From: Acidimicrobiaceae bacterium | GTDB lineage: Bacteria > Actinomycetota > Acidimicrobiia > Acidimicrobiales > Bog-793 | Reading direction: 5' to 3' | Assembly (NCBI GenBank): GCA_025463965.1 | Contig: JAODBN010000394.1 | Location: 1 to 39,932, forward strand | Length of the DNA stretch: 39,932 nucleotides | In this document: one piece after another, positions 19,209-32,000 of the stretch | How positions within the stretch are numbered: position 1 is the stretch's first letter | Layout: each line of letters starts with the position of its first letter | Made by a program: the position numbers and the translations under genes | The notes under the pieces: generated by a model | Told to the model about the DNA's origin: nothing | Database searches by the model: none | What the model saw: only the letters and a program-made list of their open reading frames with translations

Positions 19209-19233
19209 TAGAGTAGTGAGCTAGATGAGTACC
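19209..19233 (+). promoter_or_regulatory. Operator-like CTAGATGAGT (19221-19230) overlapping the predicted ATG of the FAD oxidase; TAGAGT -10-like hexamer at 19209-19214
   Basis: An exact copy of the recurring 10-mer. The ATG at 19225-19227 lies inside it. Confidence 0.5.
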
Positions 19234-20628
19234 TGGGAAAAGCAATTCATCGAGCAGTTTCCTGAGTGCGCCCGGCCGCTCGAGGACCAGCTTCTCGACG
19301 TCTGGCCGGTCTCGCTCAAGCGCCTCCGATCGGGACACGGTACGCGCCTTTCTGGCGTCGTCGCCTCGCCGAGGAGCAGCGATGAGGCGGCGGTCATCAT
19401 TCGGTGGTCAGCTCGCCATGAGGTACCCGTCGTCCCACGAGGCGGTGGCTCCTCGGTGACGGGCAGCCCGCTGCCATCGGCCGGGTTCGTGCTGCTCGAC
19501 ACCCGTAGCCTGAATCGGATCGTCGACATTGACGCCGTGGACGGCCTCGTCCACGTCCAAGCCGGCGTCCTCGGTAGCGACCTCGAAGAGGCGTTACAGG
19601 CCGAAGGGCTGACGACGTGGTTCTCGCCGCAGTCGCTCGACCGGTCGACGGTCGGCGGCTGGGTCGCGACGAGGGCGAGCGGACAGTTCTCGTCGCGCTG
19701 GGGTGGGATCGAGGACGCGGTCGTCTGCCTCACCGTCGTGCTGGCGAACGGCGCGATCGTCCGAGTCGGCACGCCGCCCCGAGGTGCAGTGGGCCCCGAC
19801 CTACGGTCGCTGTTCATCGGCAGCGAGGGCGCCTTAGGCGTCATTACGGAGGTCACGTTGCGGGTCTATCCGCTGAGCCCGGTGGCGTTGTCGACGTTCG
19901 CGCTGAAGGACATTCCCTCGGGCCTTGAGGTGATCCGTCGGCTCATGCAGTCAGGTGTGAGTCCTGCCCTACTGCGGCTCTACGACAAGGACGAGGCGTA
20001 CCACCTACAAGCGCCATCACCGGGTTCCGCTCCGATTCTCATCGCCGGCTTCGCCGGTCAGGAGGAGATCGCTGCCGCCGAGCAGCGTGTCGCTCGACGG
20101 TTGCTCGTCGACGCAGAGGCAGAAGACCTCGGTCCGGATGCCGCTGAGGCGTGGTTCAAGAACCGCTATGACTTCTCGCGTCTCGAGGCGCTCCTGGACA
20201 AGCCAGGGGGCTACGCGGAGACGATCGAAGTCGCCTTCGGCTGGCGTCGGGCGCACGGCTCCTACCTCGAGCTGAAGGAGGCACTCCGACCCCGCTCGGA
20301 TGAGGTGCTCGGCCACTTCTCGCATGCGTACAGCGACGGGATCTCCTGCTACCTCATCGCCACCGGTGAGCTCGACACCGACCCTGCGGCGCTCGAGCGG
20401 CTCGAGCAAATCTGGCGGGTGACGATGGAGACGGCGCTTGCATGTGGGGCGGTCATCTCGCACCATCACGGGGTGGGGACGGCCCGACTGCCGTACCTGG
20501 CCCGCCAGCTCGGTGGCGGCTACGACATCCTCACGACGCTGAAGCACGCGTTGGACCCTCGACAGCTCTGCCACCCGGGCAGCCTCGTCGACCCGGAAGG
20601 CCAAGGTAAACCGCCATGCGGACTGTGA
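19225..20628 (+). CDS. FAD-binding oxidoreductase (FAD_binding_4 / GlcD-, alkyl-DHAP-synthase-like)
   Basis: ORF 19225..20628. VVASPRSSDEAAVIIRWSARHEVPVVPRGGGSSVTG is the PCMH-type FAD-binding signature. C-terminal HHHGVG motif. Confidence 0.8.
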   Translation: MSTWEKQFIEQFPECARPLEDQLLDVWPVSLKRLRSGHGTRLSGVVASPRSSDEAAVIIRWSARHEVPVVPRGGGSSVTGSPLPSAGFVLLDTRSLNRIVDIDAVDGLVHVQAGVLGSDLEEALQAEGLTTWFSPQSLDRSTVGGWVATRASGQFSSRWGGIEDAVVCLTVVLANGAIVRVGTPPRGAVGPDLRSLFIGSEGALGVITEVTLRVYPLSPVALSTFALKDIPSGLEVIRRLMQSGVSPALLRLYDKDEAYHLQAPSPGSAPILIAGFAGQEEIAAAEQRVARRLLVDAEAEDLGPDAAEAWFKNRYDFSRLEALLDKPGGYAETIEVAFGWRRAHGSYLELKEALRPRSDEVLGHFSHAYSDGISCYLIATGELDTDPAALERLEQIWRVTMETALACGAVISHHHGVGTARLPYLARQLGGGYDILTTLKHALDPRQLCHPGSLVDPEGQGKPPCGL

Positions 20629-22493
20629 CCAGAGAACACGTCCTTCACCGGCTGCGCATGGCAACCGATAGCGGACGCGCCCTGCTCGCCTGTGGCGCAG
20701 CCAACGGACTCGTCGCCGCGGCGGCCGAGGCGGGTGGCGCCGACCTCATCGTCGTCTACAGCTCGGGCAAGTTCCGGGCGGCGGGGCGCAGCTCACTCAG
20801 TGCGCTGATGCCGTATGGCAATGCCAACGAGATCGTCCTCGCCATGCTGCCCGAGATCCGAACTGCGCTCGGCGACTGCCCCGTCGTCGCGGCGCTATGC
20901 GGTACCGACCCGACGACCTCGCTCGAGGCGCTTGTCAGGGCGGCGGCAGAGCGCGGTGCGAGCGGCGTGCAGAACTTCCCGACGATCGGTATGTTCGGCC
21001 ACGAATTCCGAGAGGATCTGGAAGCGACCGGCATCTCGTTCGAGCAGGAGATCGAGTTGCTCCGAGCGGCGCGTCGAGCGGATCTCCTCACCTGCGGCTA
21101 CGTCACCAACGAAGAGGACGCAGCTGCGATGGCACTGGCGGGCGTCGACGTGATCGTTCCCCTCCTCGGCGTGACGCGATACCGGAACGGCGACGACGCT
21201 GTCGCGGACGCGGCGGCTCGCATTTCGGCGCTGGCGGACGCAGCGCTCGCTGTTCGCGACGACCTGCTGCTCCTGTTCCACGGCGGACCGGTTGCAGAGC
21301 CGTCCCAGGTGCAACGCTGCTTGAAGCTGGTCCCCGCTCTTCATGGGTATATCGCGGCATCCTCGGTCGAGCGCACGCCGGTGGCCCGTGCCGTTTCCGC
21401 GGCGGCGCGGGCCTTTGTCGAGGTGCGTCGCGCTGCAGGCGAGCATCCCATTGCCGAGGCGTCGCCCGACTTCAGCACGCCGCCGCCGGACCTCCCGCTC
21501 GAGCTGACCGCGGACACCCTCGCGGAGTACCTGGCGAAGAAGGGAATTGTCGCAGCGGCTGACAACGTCGAGGTGGACGAGCTCAGTGGCGGCCTCTCGA
21601 ACGTCGTGCTGAGGTGGCGTTCCAGTGGGCAGTCGGGCGTGATCAAGCAGTCGAGACCGAGGTTGCGGGTCGCCGAGGAATGGCGCGCCGACGTCCGGCG
21701 CATCGTGAACGAGTACGAAGCCATCAGCTACCTTGCCCCCCGAGTTCACCGCGGTCGCCTGCCGACGATCACTTTCACGGACCCGACGCTGCTCGCGTTC
21801 GGAATGGAGGAGGTTTCCGCCGACGCACGGCTCTGGAAACCGGAGCTGCTTGCCGGCACCATCCACGAGGAGCGCGCGCAACAGGCGGGAGCCTTGCTCG
21901 CCGACATCCACAATGCGACTCGAGACGAGCCGACCTTGCGACGGCGCTTCCTCGCCGAGCCGCTGCTGACGCAGAATCGACTGGACCCGTGGTACCGGGC
22001 GGCCGCTCGTTGCCACCCCGACCTCGCCGCATCCTTCGAGTACGCGATCTCCCGGCTGCTCGAGGTGAAACAGGTCCTCGTGCACGGTGACTTCGTGCCG
22101 AAGAACCTCTTCCTGCTCGAGGGAGAGCTCTTTGTCGTCGACTTCGAAGTCACGCACTTCGGCAATCCGGGCTATGACGTCGCGACGTTTGTCAACCACA
22201 TGATGCTGAAGGGGTTCGCATTGCCCGAGCACCGTCAGGCCTTCGGCCGGTTGGCCTCGACCATGTGGGAGAGCTACCGCAACCTCTGGGACGGCGACCA
22301 GGCCGTGGTCCAACAGGAAGCGCTCGTACAGCTGGGCGCGCTCATGCTCGCCCGCGTCGACGGAAAGTCCAAAGTCGAATACCTCGCAGGCACAGAGCAC
22401 GCCGCCGAGGCACGTGACTTCGGGCGGTGGCTGCTGCGGAACCGCCCGGCATCCGTCGGTGAAGTACTCACTCGCTACGCCGGTCATCTCTAG
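20616..22493 (+). CDS. Fusion protein: N-terminal phosphoenolpyruvate-hydrolase-like TIM barrel (PF09370-like) + C-terminal APH/methylthioribose-kinase-like kinase domain
   Basis: ORF 20616..22493 (625 aa) overlaps the upstream gene by 13 nt. N-terminus: GAANGLVAAAAEAGGADLIVVYSSGKFRAAGRSSLSALMPYGNANEIV...GVQNFPTIG...HGGP. C-terminus: ELSGGLSNVVLRW...VLVHGDFVPKNLFL...VVDFEVTHFGNPGYDVA (Brenner HGD and DFE motifs). Confidence 0.75.
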   Translation: MRTVTREHVLHRLRMATDSGRALLACGAANGLVAAAAEAGGADLIVVYSSGKFRAAGRSSLSALMPYGNANEIVLAMLPEIRTALGDCPVVAALCGTDPTTSLEALVRAAAERGASGVQNFPTIGMFGHEFREDLEATGISFEQEIELLRAARRADLLTCGYVTNEEDAAAMALAGVDVIVPLLGVTRYRNGDDAVADAAARISALADAALAVRDDLLLLFHGGPVAEPSQVQRCLKLVPALHGYIAASSVERTPVARAVSAAARAFVEVRRAAGEHPIAEASPDFSTPPPDLPLELTADTLAEYLAKKGIVAAADNVEVDELSGGLSNVVLRWRSSGQSGVIKQSRPRLRVAEEWRADVRRIVNEYEAISYLAPRVHRGRLPTITFTDPTLLAFGMEEVSADARLWKPELLAGTIHEERAQQAGALLADIHNATRDEPTLRRRFLAEPLLTQNRLDPWYRAAARCHPDLAASFEYAISRLLEVKQVLVHGDFVPKNLFLLEGELFVVDFEVTHFGNPGYDVATFVNHMMLKGFALPEHRQAFGRLASTMWESYRNLWDGDQAVVQQEALVQLGALMLARVDGKSKVEYLAGTEHAAEARDFGRWLLRNRPASVGEVLTRYAGHL

Positions 22494-22553
22494 GACATGC
22501 CGCCGCATCGGCGCGCCTACCACGGGCATCGGCCACCCAGTGATCTTTCCGCG

Positions 22554-22608
22554 TTGACACCATCACGACGAGCTGTACACTCACTCATCTAGCTCGGCGA
22601 GCTAGATG
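22554..22608 (+). promoter_or_regulatory. Promoter-like TTGACA-N16-TACACT followed by a perfect 10-3-10 palindrome CATCTAGCTC-GGC-GAGCTAGATG
   Basis: TTGACA at 22554-22559, TACACT at 22576-22581, palindrome at 22586-22608 (contains ACTCATCTAG at 22583-22592). Lies upstream of the SBP gene, whose RBS is GGAGGGGGAG. Confidence 0.65.
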
Positions 22609-22726
22609 GCATCGGTGCCTGAGCCGAGGGGCGCAGAGGAAGGATTCACGCCACTCCGGCCGAACCCAGCGCCGACGTCCGGCTGGGTACTTTTTCGTAA
22701 GCGCTGCTTGGACTAGGAGGGGGAGT

Positions 22727-24067
22727 ATGAGAAGGCTGAAGAGAGCCGCCATCTCGGCGGGAGTAGCGGTCGCATCGCTCGCCGGTATGGGCGGGATCGC
22801 TGGGGCGAGCCAGGGATCCCATCACAAGAACGTCACTGAGCCGACGATCACGGTCTGGGACCAGAACACGACGAGCAACCTGGACCCGATCTACAACCAC
22901 CTCGTCTCACTGTTCGAGAAGCAGTACCACGTGAAGGTCGATCGCATCACGAAGCCCTTCACGCAGATCCTGCAGCAGCAAAAGCTGGCGCTGTCGGGCC
23001 CGAATCCCCCGGACATCGTCCAGTCGAACCAGGGCTACGGTGCCGAAGGCCCAGAGGCCGCTGCCAAGCTCATCGTCCCGCTAGACAAGTATGCCAAGCA
23101 GTACCATTGGGCGAGTTGCCAGCCCTCGTCGATCTTGAATGGCGGGGATTTCAGCTCGGACGGCAAACACTTCGGCAGCGGCCGGCTCTACGGGGTTTCC
23201 GACATCCTCAATTTAGTTGGGGTGTACTACAACAAGGCGCTGCTGAATAAGATCCACGTCTCCCAACAGATTTCGACGCTCACGGATTTCCAGTCCGTGC
23301 TCGCCAAGGCCAAGAAGGCTGGCATCACACCGATCGCCTTCGGCGATCTCGAGCAGTGGCCCGGCATCCACGAGTACCAGAGCCTCTGGGATGTCTACGC
23401 CCCGAGCGCCCAGGCCCTGACCCGCTACGTCTACGGCACCGGCCCAGCCACCGCCGTCACGCCATACGCGAAGCAGGCGGCCACCACGCTGCAGACCTGG
23501 GCCAAGGACGGCTACTTCGAAAGCGGCTTCAACGGGGTCACCTACGAGAACGGCACGAACGCGTTCCTACACGGGAAGGCGCTGTTCTACATCGACGGCA
23601 ACTGGGTGAATGGCTCGGTCGCCCCGGTCCTGGGCAAGAACGTCGGCGTAATGCTCATGCCCGAGGCGAAGGCGGGGGCACCGGTCCTTGCCACGGGCAG
23701 CGGCGGCAATGCGTACGTGATTGCAGCCCGTTCCAAGCACCAGGCCCTCGCGGCGGAGTATCTGAACTTCATCGCCTGCTCGAGCACGGCGGCCAAGTAC
23801 TTCATCTCGCAAGGGCAGGTTCCGCTGTACCTGCCGAAGTCCGTCGTCGCAGGAGTGCAGTCCGGCACCACGCTGGCACAATGGATCCACCTGTACAACC
23901 AGGTCGCCGCTGACAACGGCGTAATCATGTTCATGGACCTCTCAACAGACGACGGCACCACGTACATCGGCCAGCAGCTTCAGTCGCTGCTTGGTTTGAA
24001 GATGCAGCCGAGCAGCTTCGTCCAGGCAATCGAGTCCGACTACTCGCATTTCCACAGCTCGCTCTGA
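22727..24067 (+). CDS. ABC transporter extracellular solute-binding protein, family 1 (carbohydrate type)
   Basis: ORF 22727..24067. Signal peptide, then ITVWDQNTTS...; size and composition are typical of sugar SBPs. Two MalFG-type permease genes follow. Confidence 0.8.
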   Translation: MRRLKRAAISAGVAVASLAGMGGIAGASQGSHHKNVTEPTITVWDQNTTSNLDPIYNHLVSLFEKQYHVKVDRITKPFTQILQQQKLALSGPNPPDIVQSNQGYGAEGPEAAAKLIVPLDKYAKQYHWASCQPSSILNGGDFSSDGKHFGSGRLYGVSDILNLVGVYYNKALLNKIHVSQQISTLTDFQSVLAKAKKAGITPIAFGDLEQWPGIHEYQSLWDVYAPSAQALTRYVYGTGPATAVTPYAKQAATTLQTWAKDGYFESGFNGVTYENGTNAFLHGKALFYIDGNWVNGSVAPVLGKNVGVMLMPEAKAGAPVLATGSGGNAYVIAARSKHQALAAEYLNFIACSSTAAKYFISQGQVPLYLPKSVVAGVQSGTTLAQWIHLYNQVAADNGVIMFMDLSTDDGTTYIGQQLQSLLGLKMQPSSFVQAIESDYSHFHSSL

Positions 24068-25854: not shown

Positions 25855-27381
25855 ATGAGCACGACCCTCCGGTCATCGCTGCCGTTGCGGCCCGCGAAGC
25901 CAGGTGTTGAGCCGATGCAGACGCCCAGTTCCTCGCGAGCGTACCGGCGCGTTCTGATCTACGGGGCGAGCCGCGACACGGCAACGCTCGGCTCGGTACT
26001 CGCAGCCGGCGGCGCCGATGTGGACTTCGTCCAGCCGACGCCGGTTTCCGGTTCGCTCGCCGCGGAGTTTCCCGCCTTGCGGACGAAGCTTCGAGTCGCC
26101 GAGCCCGCTGAGATGGCTGAACACCCGTTTGACTATGACGCCGTCTTTGTGGACGCGTCGTACGACGGGATCGTTCCACCGGAGAAGCTGTGGTGCGCGA
26201 TCGGGGCGCAGCGAGCAGGCGTCCTCGTCTCCTCCGTCGCAGATTACGTGTTGGCGCATTCGAGTGCGCTCACGATTGGCGTCACCGGCTCGGCCGGTAA
26301 GACCACGACAGCCTCCCTGATCGCCCACATCTTGGACTCGGCTGGCCGGACTGTGCACATTGCTTCTGACCTGCGACCGCAGACGAACCGCTGCCCGAAC
26401 TACGAGATCCTACGGGCGCTCCCGGAAATGGCTCCCACCGACGTGCTCGTCGCTGAGCTGACGAGCGTCTATCTGTCCTTCATGCAGACGAGCCCGAAGA
26501 TCGCGGTCGTGACGAACCTGTGGCCGGAGCATCTGGAGTGGCATGGCTCGATGGCCGCCTATGTAGCGGCGAAGCAGACCATCCTCCGCCATCAGCAGAG
26601 CGATGATTGGGCGGTCTTGAACGGCGACGATCCCGCAGTCCGAAAGCACTTCGCGTCGCCGTGCAGGCGGTTGGCACTCTTCGGACGTCAGGACCTCGAC
26701 CATCCCAACTGCGTCTTCCTCTCGGGGGACATCGTCTATGTCCGTTGGGGTGGTGACGATGAACAGATCATGCTCGGGCAAGAGCTGCACGACGACGACC
26801 CGTACGCACTTAACGTGTTGGCGGCGGTTGCCGCGGCGAAGGCGGCAGGCGTCCAAAACGAGGCGTTGGCCGGGACGCTGGCGACGTTCACCGGCGTCGC
26901 GCAGCGTGGTGAGCTCGTTGGTGAGGTCGCCGGGGTCCGGGTGTTCAATGACGCAATGGCGATGTCGCCGGTCAAGGTTAAGCGCAGCCTCGAGTCGTTC
27001 AGCGATGGGTCCGTAGTCCTCATTGCCGGCGGGGAGGCGACGTTCCCGAACGAGGTGCTGCACAGCTCGCCGGAGGCACGGGCGCAACTGGAGCAGTTGG
27101 CGGACACCATTTCGAACAAGACCGTCGCCGTGATCCTTTACGGTGAGGGGGGTCGCCTCCTGCGGAGCGTGCTACTCGACCGGCAGATCGAGAGTCCCGA
27201 GTTGGTCGAGGTCGCCGACCTCTCTGCGGCCGCCGCTGCGGCCGCCGCTGCGGCCGCAGCGCGGGGCAGAGATGGAACGGCGCTTCTTTTTGCTCCGCTG
27301 TTCTATGTGCCGCTCGAGGAGCGTTCGCAGATGGGTCGACGGCTGCTCCGCGGGCTCGCGCTCGTGCAACGCGAAGGCTGA
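25855..27381 (+). CDS. Mur ligase family protein (MurD-like paralogue) with C-terminal poly-Ala tract
   Basis: ORF 25855..27381. Rossmann-like N-terminus (RVLIYGASRDTATLGSVLAAGGADVDF), ATP-binding GVTGSAGKTTTASLIAHIL, and a central TNLWPEHLEWHGSMAAYVAAK typical of Mur ligases. ATG 25915 is an alternative start. Confidence 0.75.
   Translation: MSTTLRSSLPLRPAKPGVEPMQTPSSSRAYRRVLIYGASRDTATLGSVLAAGGADVDFVQPTPVSGSLAAEFPALRTKLRVAEPAEMAEHPFDYDAVFVDASYDGIVPPEKLWCAIGAQRAGVLVSSVADYVLAHSSALTIGVTGSAGKTTTASLIAHILDSAGRTVHIASDLRPQTNRCPNYEILRALPEMAPTDVLVAELTSVYLSFMQTSPKIAVVTNLWPEHLEWHGSMAAYVAAKQTILRHQQSDDWAVLNGDDPAVRKHFASPCRRLALFGRQDLDHPNCVFLSGDIVYVRWGGDDEQIMLGQELHDDDPYALNVLAAVAAAKAAGVQNEALAGTLATFTGVAQRGELVGEVAGVRVFNDAMAMSPVKVKRSLESFSDGSVVLIAGGEATFPNEVLHSSPEARAQLEQLADTISNKTVAVILYGEGGRLLRSVLLDRQIESPELVEVADLSAAAAAAAAAAAARGRDGTALLFAPLFYVPLEERSQMGRRLLRGLALVQREG
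27226..27261 (+). repeat. 12-bp tandem repeat GCGGCCGCCGCT x2 plus a degenerate third copy (three NotI sites) encoding an 11-Ala run
   Basis: Read directly from the sequence; lies inside the Mur ligase-like CDS. Confidence 0.8.
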
Positions 27382-27392
27382 CGCGGATCCCG

Positions 27393-27427
27393 TTGCAACT
27401 CATCTAGATCTCTGATAGAGATGACAA
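27393..27427 (+). promoter_or_regulatory. Operator-like imperfect palindrome ACTCATCTAGATC-TCT-GATAGAGATGAC with TTGCAA -35-like hexamer
   Basis: ACTCATCTAG at 27398-27407 is an exact copy of the recurring 10-mer, in reverse orientation. The second half-site, GATAGAGATGA, is degenerate. Lies directly upstream of the PdxA-family gene (27429). Confidence 0.55.
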
Positions 27428-27428
27428 C

Positions 27429-28445
27429 ATGGGATCTGACGTGATGGCACCTCCGCTAATTGCGCTCACCCTGGGCGACGTCAGCGGCGTTGGCCCCGAG
27501 CTCATTGCGTTGGCTCTTCGGCGCCAAGAAGACATCGCGATTTGCCGGCCGGTGGTCATCGGCTCGGCGAAGATCTTCGCCGAGCGCGCTGAGGCGGTGG
27601 CTGCGCCGGTCGAAGTGCGCGTCATCGGCGACCTCGACGAGGCACGCTTCGAGCCCGGCGTCGTCGATCTGATCGATCCCTTCGGAAGCAATGTCGAGGT
27701 CCCCTCTGTCGGGCAGGTCGATCCGGCGGCAGGCAAGTTCGCCGCTCGCTGCCTCGAGGTCGCGTTCGAGCTCGCGCTGGAGGGCAGGATCGCAGGCGTC
27801 GCCGGTGCACCGCTCAACAAGGAAGCATTCCGCCGCGCCGGGTACAACTACATCGACGAGATCGCCTTCCTGAGCGAGTTCACGCGAAGCGAGGAACCGC
27901 GGTTATTCGGGGTGCTGAGGGGCATGATGACGACCAACGTGACCCTGCACATCCCCTTCAAGGACGTCCCGGCGCAGATAACGCAGCCCAACGTCGAGGC
28001 CTCGATCGAGGCGATGCTCGCCGTGCTGGCCAAGGCCGGCAAGTCCTCCCCGAAGGTGATCGTCGCCGCCCTCAACCCCCACAACGGCGAGGGCGGTCTC
28101 TTCGGCAACGAGGAGATCGACTTCATTCGGCCTGCCGTCGAAGCGAAGCGTGCTGCCGGCTTCGATATCACCGGTCCCTTCCCCGCGGACACCCTGTTCC
28201 CGATGGCACTCGCTTCAGGGATGGACGGGGTCGTCTGCATGTACCACGACCAGGCGAACATTGCTCGCAAGCTCGGCGGCTTCACCGGAAGCGCGAGTGC
28301 CTTCATCGGCCTGCCGGTGCCGTACGCGACGACGGCGCACGGCACGGCATTCGACCTCGTTGGCACCGGCAAGGCGGACCCCTCCAGCTTCCTCACCGCT
28401 TTGAGCTTTGTGGTCGACCAGTCCCAGGCGCGCACGGACGCATGA
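27429..28445 (+). CDS. PdxA family NAD-dependent 4-hydroxy(thre)onate-4-phosphate-type dehydrogenase
   Basis: ORF 27429..28445. LIALTLGDVSGVGPELI N-terminus, ALNPHNGEGGLFG, and HDQANIARK and TTAHGTAFD motifs characteristic of PdxA/PdxA2 proteins. Confidence 0.8.
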   Translation: MGSDVMAPPLIALTLGDVSGVGPELIALALRRQEDIAICRPVVIGSAKIFAERAEAVAAPVEVRVIGDLDEARFEPGVVDLIDPFGSNVEVPSVGQVDPAAGKFAARCLEVAFELALEGRIAGVAGAPLNKEAFRRAGYNYIDEIAFLSEFTRSEEPRLFGVLRGMMTTNVTLHIPFKDVPAQITQPNVEASIEAMLAVLAKAGKSSPKVIVAALNPHNGEGGLFGNEEIDFIRPAVEAKRAAGFDITGPFPADTLFPMALASGMDGVVCMYHDQANIARKLGGFTGSASAFIGLPVPYATTAHGTAFDLVGTGKADPSSFLTALSFVVDQSQARTDA

Positions 28446-31083: not shown

Positions 31084-31899
31084 TCAGCGCTTGGCGGCTC
31101 CGCCGTACGGCCAGCTGTGTGGATCGATCGGCGAGTTGAAGCTGAGCTTTACCCGCTCACTCTGGTAGTAGGCGAAGCCACATTCAATCGGGTCGTCCTC
31201 GAGCCCGTACATCACCGCCTTGCTGACAAGCAGGGGGTCGTTCGGTGCGGCGCCGAGGAGGTCGCCGCGCTCGCCCGCGAGTTCAGCTCCGAGCTCGGTC
31301 GTGACTCGTGCAATCTGTATGCCGAACATCGTGTACAGCAATTCGAGCAGCGACGTCTGTCCTAGATCCGCCCCGAGCAACCGACTGAACCGCTCCGAGT
31401 CGTAATACGCCTCGTCGATCGCGACCGGCCGGTCGAGGACTGAGCGCAGCCGGGTGATCCGGACCGTCTCGGATCCGCGGCGCAGACCGAGCGCATCGGT
31501 CACCTCGGCCGTCGCTGTCACGAGCTCGGCATCAAGCACCTTGGTGGTGGTGTCCAGCCCGAGATCCCGCAGGTAGTGCGAGAGGCTCGCCGTGGTGAGG
31601 AACTCTGCCGACAGCGTCGACGAGGTGACCTGGTAGCCGCGGCCATGTAGCGGGCGCACGAACCCCTGGTTCGCGAGCATGTGAACCGCCTGTCGCACCG
31701 TCAGGCGGTTGACGCCGAAGTGCTCGCTGAGGTCGCTCTCGGAGGGGAGCAGATCGCCGGGGCGGTAGATCCCGCGCCAGATGTCCGTCAGAACCGAGCG
31801 GCGAATCTGCTCGTAGAGCGATGTCGTGCCGCGTCGCAACGGCGACTCCCGCCGGGATCCGGTGCCTTCTGTCGTCTTGCGCGGACGGGTCGCCATCAC
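31084..31899 (-). CDS. GntR family transcriptional regulator, HutC subfamily (wHTH + UTRA effector domain)
   Basis: ORF 31084..31899. LPSESDLSEHFGVNRLTVRQAVHMLANQGFV wHTH followed by a ~150-aa UTRA-like region. Confidence 0.85.
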   Translation of the reverse strand: MMATRPRKTTEGTGSRRESPLRRGTTSLYEQIRRSVLTDIWRGIYRPGDLLPSESDLSEHFGVNRLTVRQAVHMLANQGFVRPLHGRGYQVTSSTLSAEFLTTASLSHYLRDLGLDTTTKVLDAELVTATAEVTDALGLRRGSETVRITRLRSVLDRPVAIDEAYYDSERFSRLLGADLGQTSLLELLYTMFGIQIARVTTELGAELAGERGDLLGAAPNDPLLVSKAVMYGLEDDPIECGFAYYQSERVKLSFNSPIDPHSWPYGGAAKR

Positions 31900-31970: not shown

Positions 31971-32000
31971 CTTAGGCTAACATAGCTAGATGAGTTATAT
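31971..32000 (+). promoter_or_regulatory. Divergent control region: CTAGATGAGT (31986-31995) inside TTAGGC-N17-TTATAT promoter-like spacing
   Basis: An exact copy of the recurring 10-mer, between the GntR gene (start 31899, minus strand) and the serine-hydrolase gene (32034, RBS GGAGGA). Confidence 0.55.

Follow-up and report, generated by a model that had tools for sequence, protein, structure and literature searches.

PF09370 barrels are spread across bacteria, archaea, fungi, and plants, and one of them forms part of the tomato virus-resistance protein Tm-1. In bacteria, 97.4% of the genomes that have a PF09370 barrel also have UPF0261, and the two families co-evolve (Yang et al., PMC5028733). 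UPF0261 was shown in 2025 to be a kinase, with its member MarK phosphorylating acetovanillone and converting ATP to ADP (PMC12624787). The stretch of DNA analysed here, referred to as the window, covers positions 1 to 39,932 of contig JAODBN010000394.1 (assembly GCA_025463965.1) from an Acidimicrobiaceae bacterium, and it carries a gene in which a PF09370 barrel is fused to a kinase domain of the APH/eukaryotic-like type, directly behind a gene for a flavoprotein. The window is GC-rich (62-74%) and its source bin was recovered from a soil metagenome (3.54 Mb, 438 contigs, 77% complete). At a general level, the fused protein is read as a bifunctional kinase-barrel enzyme in which the kinase stands in the place of UPF0261 and a phosphorylated sugar-acid intermediate is formed, and this reading is given a probability of about 0.5.

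Both domains of the fused protein are recognised well above the Pfam cut-offs. Residues 9-269 match PF09370 (PEP_hydrolase, where PEP is phosphoenolpyruvate) at E 3e-84, with 282.8 bits against a cut-off of 33.8 and with the match spanning profile positions 2-266 of 267, and residues 322-555 match PF01636 (APH) at E 3e-14, with 53.8 bits against a cut-off of 23.2. No match to PF06792 or PF23189 is present in the fused protein in Pfam. A first interpretation made from the letters alone, the sequence-only reading, had assigned the N-terminal half to PF09370 and the C-terminal half to a small-molecule kinase with HGD...DFE motifs, and had placed the start of the gene in a 13-nt overlap with an upstream flavin adenine dinucleotide (FAD) oxidase gene. 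The first assignment is upheld by the profile score and by close likeness to a solved barrel, described below, the second by the presence of H490-G-D492...N497 and D509-F-E511, and the third by the sequence itself, with overlaps recurring in homologous loci. An AlphaFold model of the fusion (predicted local distance difference test, pLDDT, 86) consists of two compact domains and a disordered linker at residues 274-283, where pLDDT falls below 50; the linker is weakly conserved except for a P-D/N-F motif. Coordinates of these features are collected in Table 1.

About 35 clusters with the fusion architecture, at 43-83% identity and nearly all metagenomic, were recovered when 5.8 billion proteins were searched. 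Of these, 29 full-length homologues align with the fused protein from end to end, N-terminus, start codon, and linker included, and both halves show invariant motifs. Four full-length fusions and one fragment, alongside thousands of stand-alone barrels and kinases, emerged when 1.84 billion representative proteins (50% clusters) were searched exhaustively with a profile. Among 185,579 species represented by one genome each, four carry the fusion, all as bins (Solirubrobacteraceae, Solirubrobacterales, Chloroflexota, and Microcella), and 300 other genomes from the order of the window contain no copy of it. These counts agree with the sequence-only reading, which had called the fusion unusual: the fusion is real, conserved, and rare. 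It is undescribed in the literature searched, and automatic annotation already names both of its domains.

A single DNA run contains the window sequence and is probably the source sample, and no RNA dataset is listed as containing the stretch. A contig made from that run by a different assembler shows no differences from the window over 21042-22792, a segment spanning the domain junction; it is an independent assembly but not independent data, because it derives from the same sample. In a homologous locus of Solirubrobacterales (L007:10001-10737; G003 C6:178549-179318), the match to the barrel half is broken into two segments that lie in different frames, which represents either a frameshifted gene or an assembly error. 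This apparent frameshift inside a barrel, together with the fragmented state of the window's bin, gives some ground to the possibility, raised with the original description, that an assembly or sequencing frameshift merged two genes. The recurrence of the continuous architecture in about 35 independent clusters from different samples, the four full-length fused representatives in the exhaustive library, the alignment of start codon and linker with those of homologues, and the identical second assembly across the junction effectively exclude such an artefact.

Phylogenetic trees of the barrel and of the kinase, the former obtained by a quick tree search, each place all fused sequences on one side of a branch (approximate likelihood-ratio test support of 100 and 99, respectively), and the two trees subdivide the fused sequences identically into groups of 24 and 5. 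Because both halves group the fused sequences with the same split, a single fusion event is suggested, and the pattern fits one fusion followed by co-evolution of the halves and horizontal spread. In the kinase tree, the fused kinases form a polytomy with the stand-alone clades that could be their sister.

The closest solved structure to the barrel is Mll9387 from Mesorhizobium loti (PDB 2P10), with 41% identity at a sequence E of 3e-62, a structural Z of 36.6, a root-mean-square deviation of 2.1 over 268 residues, and a Foldseek E of 3e-22. Stand-alone bacterial barrels and the C-terminal half of plant Tm-1 are related to the fusion barrel at 41-47% identity, and 50 positions hold the same residue at ≥90% conservation in the 29 fused and in 45 stand-alone or Tm-1 barrels. 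The invariant polar residues shared by these sequences are D43, R54, N71, C95, D98, N120, T123, R132, E145, H222, S249, E252, and R253. Since the 50 conserved positions are common to fused and non-fused barrels, the chemistry of the barrel appears to be unchanged by the fusion. The second-best structural neighbour, 4ML9 (Z 22.4), was titled by its depositors as a TIM barrel with a conserved phosphate binding site, and is followed by enzymes of the PEP mutase/isocitrate lyase group at Z 18-19 and then by IGPS, TIM, and NanE at Z 17-18. In the standard phosphate-binding pattern of TIM barrels, glycines after strand 7 are combined with a short helix after strand 8. In the fusion barrel, the invariant S249 opens a helix (249-252) after strand 8 that also contains the invariant E252 and is followed by the invariant R253, and this helix and the invariant G223-G224 after strand 7 are together a candidate phosphate site matching the TIM-barrel pattern.

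The partner with which such barrels normally occur is missing from the window genome as recovered. The expectation in the sequence-only reading that UPF0261 is the usual partner holds in the window's order, where it lies directly upstream of a stand-alone barrel on the same strand in five of five genomes, as well as in the published co-occurrence figure (PMC5028733). The single PF09370 match in the window genome is the fusion itself, no UPF0261 (PF06792) match is present in this 77% complete bin, and UPF0261 was likewise not found in the Chloroflexota and Microcella carriers of the fusion. The simplest reading is that an unrelated APH kinase has displaced UPF0261 as the partner of the barrel. 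UPF0261 is itself a kinase (PMC12624787), and the APH domain is for this reason most likely its replacement; the displacement of UPF0261 by an unrelated kinase would in turn imply that the barrel needs kinase activity. The putative phosphorylation step coupled to the barrel, as had been suggested from the fusion alone, is strengthened by the 2025 result on UPF0261 (PMC12624787).

Among canonical pairs in the window's order, two loci (L081:4913-13305 and L079:5263-10751) place UPF0261 and the barrel behind genes of a LIV-type ATP-binding cassette (ABC) importer; the pair in L081 precedes genes for a xylose-isomerase-like TIM barrel and for a GFO/IDH/MocA oxidoreductase, and the UPF0261 open reading frame (ORF) in L079 has an additional N-terminal region of about 200 residues that has no Pfam match. 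The nearest metagenomic stand-alone barrels (L048-L050) have no adjoining UPF0261 or flavoprotein gene and are uninformative as a baseline, and the 402-residue neighbour of the barrel in L048 is a sigma factor.

The kinase half is most similar to methylthioribose kinase (MtnK). In Foldseek comparisons its nearest structures are MtnK (2pyw and 2pul; target-normalised TM-score 0.66-0.72, 17-20% identity) and the psilocybin kinase PsiK, a profile of the kinase family matches MtnK from B. subtilis (2olc) at E 5e-15, and the best NCBIfam model is that of MtnK, TIGR01767. Four motifs are aligned by the profile, GGLSN with GDGNLN, VVKQS with IIKQA, HGDFVPKN with HGDLHTGS, and DFE with DPE (fusion and MtnK, respectively), and K344, H490-G-D492...N497, and D509-x-E511 are invariant in the 29 fused sequences. 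From an earlier likening of this half to methylthioribose, fructosamine, and aminoglycoside kinases, the MtnK-like part is retained, whereas the fructosamine- and aminoglycoside-kinase families have no Pfam or NCBIfam match; for the fructosamine-3-kinase family this applies to Pfam matches at E ≤0.01 and to NCBIfam matches, and HMMER filters can drop weak matches. Membership in the Pfam family APH and the structural and profile likeness to MtnK might indicate a true methylthioribose kinase, or an aminoglycoside or macrolide phosphotransferase, fused to the barrel by chance. The MtnK model, however, scores only 62.9 bits against an equivalog cut-off of 275, so that orthology with MtnK was rejected, identity to MtnK structures is low, and the catalytic loop reads HGDFVPKN rather than HGDLHTGS. 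Nine neighbourhoods of the fusion were read, including the window's own, and their gene tables contain no methionine-salvage genes (MtnA, MtnB, or others) and no resistance context. A chance fusion of this kind is very improbable.

Stand-alone relatives at 30-38% identity to the kinase half are found in several settings that bear on its substrate. One relative (L061:6138-8958, 35% identity) is flanked by overlapping or abutting genes for a 2-hydroxyacid dehydrogenase and an HpcH/HpaI aldolase, which suggests by analogy a glycerate-like kinase role; the layout recalls GarR-GarK-GarL of E. coli. In the window's order, the stop of relatives at 33-37% identity (L074:3400-6945 and L078:7687-10866) overlaps the start of an enolase paralogue, after which comes an FAA hydrolase, and the subfamily is fused to enolase in two proteins of 745 and 770 residues (P0267 and P0317). 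These enolase-linked relatives suggest an undescribed hydroxy-acid kinase feeding an enolase-type dehydration. Further members of the subfamily are fused to the mannonate dehydratase UxuA (P0067, 724 residues) and to an FGGY carbohydrate kinase (P0273, 730 residues). In 17 genomes of Phycisphaerae/Planctomycetota (L009-L039, for example L014:8728-11101), a kinase of the subfamily of about 365 residues is encoded directly behind a dihydropteroate-synthase-like gene and a conserved 125-residue ORF that matches nothing in Pfam; a folate-pathway role is conceivable for this kinase, which is a candidate to replace HPPK. The Phycisphaerae kinases were considered as a guide to the substrate and rejected, as a folate-type operon indicates a different function. 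Because the partners of the other relatives all work on small hydroxy or oxo carboxylic acids, the fused kinase is likely to use acid sugars or fragments of these.

The flavoprotein gene lies immediately upstream of the fusion in all nine neighbourhoods, and the two genes overlap by 4-13 nt in six of them (the window, L002, L003, L045, L047, and the P0020 locus). The sequence-only reading had named the partner an FAD oxidase, and the FAD-linked oxidase family is correct (FAD_binding_4 and FAD-oxidase_C in Pfam), although the assignment is now narrowed from a generic oxidase to the type of alkyl-dihydroxyacetone phosphate (alkyl-DHAP) synthase. The best PDB matches are alkyl-DHAP synthases (2uuu and 4bby; E 4e-48 and 1e-45), followed by glycolate oxidase at 7e-39, and R251, Y376, and S-H413-H-H415-G align with the alkyl-DHAP synthase active site and are invariant in eight of eight partners. 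The motifs of GlcD are absent, with S-H-H-H-G-V-G and S-H-A-Y-S-D-G-I-S in the partner as against G-E-H-G-V-G and A-H-A-G-D-G-N-L-H in the glycolate oxidase 9qgz, and GlcD models in NCBIfam score far under their cut-offs, making a D-lactate or glycolate dehydrogenase less likely on these residues. Paralogues with the HHH loop are common in the window's order, and the motif therefore marks a broad bacterial clade and does not establish a chemistry; ether-lipid synthesis seems unlikely given the catabolic context. Flavoprotein partners from other lineages are 50-56% identical to that of the window, exceeding the best paralogue in 300 genomes of the same order (42%), and so the flavoprotein and the fusion appear to travel as a two-gene module. 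A regulatory or sensor protein whose kinase domain acts on protein would be called for only by an old database name, 'TIM-barrel signal transduction protein' (PMC5028733). The gene is located in catabolic operons and translationally coupled to an enzyme, its kinase fold is of the small-molecule MtnK/PsiK type, and no DNA-binding or receiver domain was found in the fused protein in Pfam, which together leave a signalling role barely plausible.

Beyond the flavoprotein, four of the nine neighbourhoods contain apionate lactonase domains, and one contains an apiosidase. Genes of the 2-Hacid_dh and HpcH_HpaI families lie directly 3' of the fusion in three (L003, L047, and the P0020 locus), and a gene of the NAD-dependent epimerase/dehydratase family occupies this position in two others. 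Other recurrent genes are those for GntR regulators, small glyoxalase-fold proteins, FAA hydrolases, lactonases, and sugar ABC importers. The neighbourhoods point to oxidative sugar-acid clusters, often for apionate, rather than to loci for Amadori compounds. Described routes of D-apionate catabolism employ ApnO, OiaK (DUF1537), and a RuBisCO-like protein (summarised in PMC13753588). Among the fusion loci with apionate lactonase, no gene table contains a DUF1537 kinase or a RuBisCO-like protein, and apionate lactonase, apiosidase, and DUF1537 were not found by the queries used in the window genome, a 77% complete bin. A paralogue of the PdxA family is encoded near the fusion in the window (27429-28445) and in the Solirubrobacterales locus (L007:16743-17879). 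PdxA-family enzymes act on 4-phospho hydroxy acids, and for this reason, and as no DUF1537 was found, the fusion kinase could supply the PdxA substrate. Because the sugar clusters that house the module vary, its substrate may be a downstream intermediate common to them instead of the sugar that is imported.

In the window, the fusion belongs to a sugar locus composed of several units. One contains PhyH together with an Rpe paralogue and a ROK kinase, and another consists of the flavoprotein and fusion genes. A third encodes a binding protein with two permeases and a MurD-like ligase, and a fourth combines the PdxA paralogue with genes for an SMP-30-type lactonase, an RraA-like aldolase, and an aldo-keto reductase. 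A further unit is a divergent HutC-type GntR regulator (31084-31899). The 10-mer CTAGATGAGT occurs in four exact copies and one copy with a single mismatch against 0.83 expected, and five copies were reached in none of 100 shuffles. It heads four units of the window, which suggests one regulon, and it is probably the operator of the HutC-type regulator. The MurD-like Mur ligase (25855-27381), which scores 159 bits to the murD model against a cut-off of 212, ends the binding-protein/permease unit far from any cell-wall cluster, and that unit contains no ABC ATPase gene.

These surroundings could be taken to indicate a kinase for Amadori compounds or amino sugars, which the sequence-only reading had listed for activity screens. 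The module would then process a conjugate of an amino sugar, or a glycated amine, brought in by the adjacent ABC system, given that the HutC-type GntR regulator, a GlmS/FrlB-like SIS protein, the ROK kinase, the MurD-like ligase, and a serine-hydrolase-family protein fall in one putative regulon tied together by the shared 10-mer. The Pfam and NCBIfam searches yielded no fructosamine-kinase family, the SIS protein reaches only a weak 26.7 bits with FrlB (cut-off 430), and this gene set is present in none of the other eight neighbourhoods, all of which are sugar-acid clusters, so that an Amadori or amino-sugar substrate is improbable.

In the proposed mechanism, the MtnK-like kinase domain would take the place of UPF0261, the usual ATP-dependent kinase partner of the barrel, and would phosphorylate a hydroxyl of a sugar-derived hydroxy or keto acid. 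The barrel would bind that phosphate at a standard phosphate-binding site and isomerise or cleave the carbon skeleton, and the flavoprotein would use either this phosphorylated intermediate or a product as its substrate. Its gene and the fused gene would form a mobile module plugged into oxidative pathways running from sugar to lactone to sugar acid, with host pathways that most often contain a D-apionate lactonase. The analysis shows the architecture with its conservation, rarity, and single origin, the intact catalytic residues of both halves, the strict linkage to the flavoprotein, and the lack of UPF0261 in three of five carriers, whereas the sequence of steps, phosphate binding by the barrel, and the class of substrate are inferred.

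Several observations weigh against this kinase-barrel enzyme in UPF0261's place. UPF0261 is present in two of the five carriers (G001 and G003), so its absence is not universal among them, and G003 has an intact canonical UPF0261-barrel pair on another contig besides the fusion; the three carriers in which UPF0261 was not found are all incomplete metagenome bins. The barrel also resembles the PEP mutase/isocitrate lyase superfamily, in which Mg2+ rather than a phosphate site mediates substrate binding, and literature searches returned no biochemical paper on any PF09370 barrel and no assigned reaction. In the AlphaFold model, a predicted template modelling score (pTM) of 0.62 leaves the mutual orientation of the two domains poorly defined. 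A substrate class is not confidently transferable from kinases at 30-37% identity, because their contexts differ widely and include a folate-type operon. The window locus contains no apionate lactonase, 2-Hacid_dh, or HpcH/HpaI gene, and as a result one substrate may not fit all contexts.

Some of the same evidence would suit a fusion of neighbouring pathway steps without any replacement of a partner, in which the barrel acts first with no need of a phosphorylated substrate, for example producing a hydroxy acid for the kinase to phosphorylate, and the kinase has no relation to the role of UPF0261. The canonical pair retained beside the fusion in G003 is consistent with this, as is the domain order, barrel before kinase, which is the reverse of that in Tm-1. 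Kinases of the subfamily also have partners without a barrel, in the order 2-Hacid_dh, kinase, HpcH_HpaI (L061) or kinase, enolase, FAA hydrolase (L074 and L078), and 2-Hacid_dh and HpcH_HpaI follow the fusion itself in three loci. The conserved glycines and extra helix of the barrel, however, fit a phosphate site, the active-site residues are unchanged from those of barrels partnered by UPF0261, and three of five carriers lack a detected UPF0261 against a co-occurrence of 97.4% (PMC5028733). A fusion of successive steps is accordingly considered unlikely, though it merits attention, and replacement of UPF0261 by the kinase domain is preferred.

A bolder reading is an undescribed, non-decarboxylating removal of the branch from D-apionate-type sugar acids by the flavoprotein, barrel, and kinase. 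The kinase would phosphorylate a hydroxymethyl group, the barrel would hold the phosphate and perform an isocitrate-lyase-like C2-C3 cleavage to dihydroxyacetone phosphate and a two-carbon acid, and the flavoprotein would oxidise the two-carbon acid or act on the DHAP-like product. This proposal is speculative and quite unlikely in its details. If true, it would provide the first general reaction type for PF09370, including the Tm-1 half, as lyases acting on phosphorylated hydroxy acids made by a partner kinase.

At the general level, the fusion is a natural experiment in which the partner has most likely been swapped for an unrelated kinase while the active site of the barrel was kept, which argues that the barrel needs a kinase and not UPF0261 as such, and it lends support to phosphorylated acids derived from sugars as the substrates of this orphan barrel family. 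A single polypeptide and one flavoprotein constitute a compact, expressible system for finding the substrate of the barrel, for which the recurrent apionate-lactonase neighbourhoods give a short list of candidates. The same neighbourhoods hint at an undescribed route for apiose, a plant cell-wall sugar, in soil Actinomycetota and Chloroflexota.

Table 1. Positions in the window of the fused gene, its domains and motifs, the flavoprotein partner, and the operator-like repeats.
Feature	Position	Strand	Basis or remark
Operator-like 10-mer CTAGATGAGT, overlapping the flavoprotein ATG	19221..19230		exact copy
FAD-linked oxidase-family partner, 467 aa, alkyl-DHAP-synthase type	19225..20628	+	Pfam, PDB match, residues
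Overlap of flavoprotein stop and fused-gene start, 13 nt, translational coupling	20616..20628	+	sequence
Fused gene, 625 codons + stop	20616..22493	+	open ORF, Pfam, alignment
PF09370 (beta/alpha)8 barrel domain, residues 9-269	20640..21422	+	Pfam, 2P10 match, models
Invariant barrel motif N120-F-P-T123, end of strand 4	20973..20984	+	alignment
Invariant H222-G-G-P225, end of strand 7, candidate phosphate-binding glycines	21279..21290	+	alignment, modelled secondary structure
A248-S-S-V-E-R253, strand 8 end and short extra helix 249-252, candidate phosphate-binding	21357..21374	+	alignment, model
Inter-domain linker, residues 270-296	21423..21503	+	alignment, AlphaFold model
MtnK-like APH/eukaryotic-like kinase domain, residues ~297-625	21504..22490	+	Pfam, NCBIfam, structure and profile comparison
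Glycine-rich loop G325-G-L-S-N329, aligns with MtnK GDGNLN	21588..21602	+	alignment, profile
Invariant ATP-binding lysine K344 (V-K-Q-S; MtnK I-K-Q-A)	21645..21647	+	alignment, profile
Catalytic loop H490-G-D492-F-V-P-K-N497	22083..22106	+	alignment, profile
Metal-binding D509-F-E511 (MtnK D-P-E)	22140..22148	+	alignment, profile
Further exact CTAGATGAGT copies	22583-22592, 27398-27407, 31986-31995		each heads a unit of the 16-34 kb sugar locus

Comparison with described systems places the fusion near several of them. Mll9387 (2P10), the only solved PF09370 member, is a stand-alone barrel from structural genomics that has no assigned function, whereas the fusion barrel is covalently linked to a kinase. 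MtnK (2olc, 2pul, and 2pyw) has the same fold as the fused kinase and shares its G-loop, K-Q, HGD, and DxE motifs, but at 17-20% identity the tail of the catalytic loop differs and the fusion lacks a methionine-salvage context. The partner flavoproteins share the active-site Arg and Tyr and the S-H-H-H-G loop of alkyl-DHAP synthase (2uuu and 4bby); unlike that enzyme, they are bacterial, have no N-terminal extension, and occur in a catabolic setting. With the apionate routes, by analogy of role only, the neighbourhoods share an apionate lactonase, a sugar dehydrogenase, an ABC importer, and a predicted acid-sugar kinase step, and they differ in having the flavoprotein, the barrel-kinase, 2-Hacid_dh, and HpcH/HpaI in place of the DUF1537 kinase and the RuBisCO-like protein. 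MarK (Saro_1862) from Novosphingobium aromaticivorans is the only UPF0261 with a shown activity and sets a precedent for a small-molecule kinase that converts ATP to ADP, yet it is not homologous to the fused kinase, acts without a barrel, and phosphorylates phenolic lignin monomers (PMC12624787). Plant Tm-1 and Tm-1-like proteins and the bacterial UPF0261-PF09370 pairs likewise couple the barrel to an ATP-binding, kinase-type partner; this partner is UPF0261 and N-terminal in Tm-1, whereas in the fusion it is of the APH/eukaryotic-like-kinase fold and C-terminal of the barrel, and the obligatory alkyl-DHAP-synthase-like flavoprotein neighbour of the fusion is absent beside the canonical pairs examined. 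The fusion therefore extends the known pairing of a kinase with a PF09370 barrel to a non-homologous kinase and an added flavoprotein.

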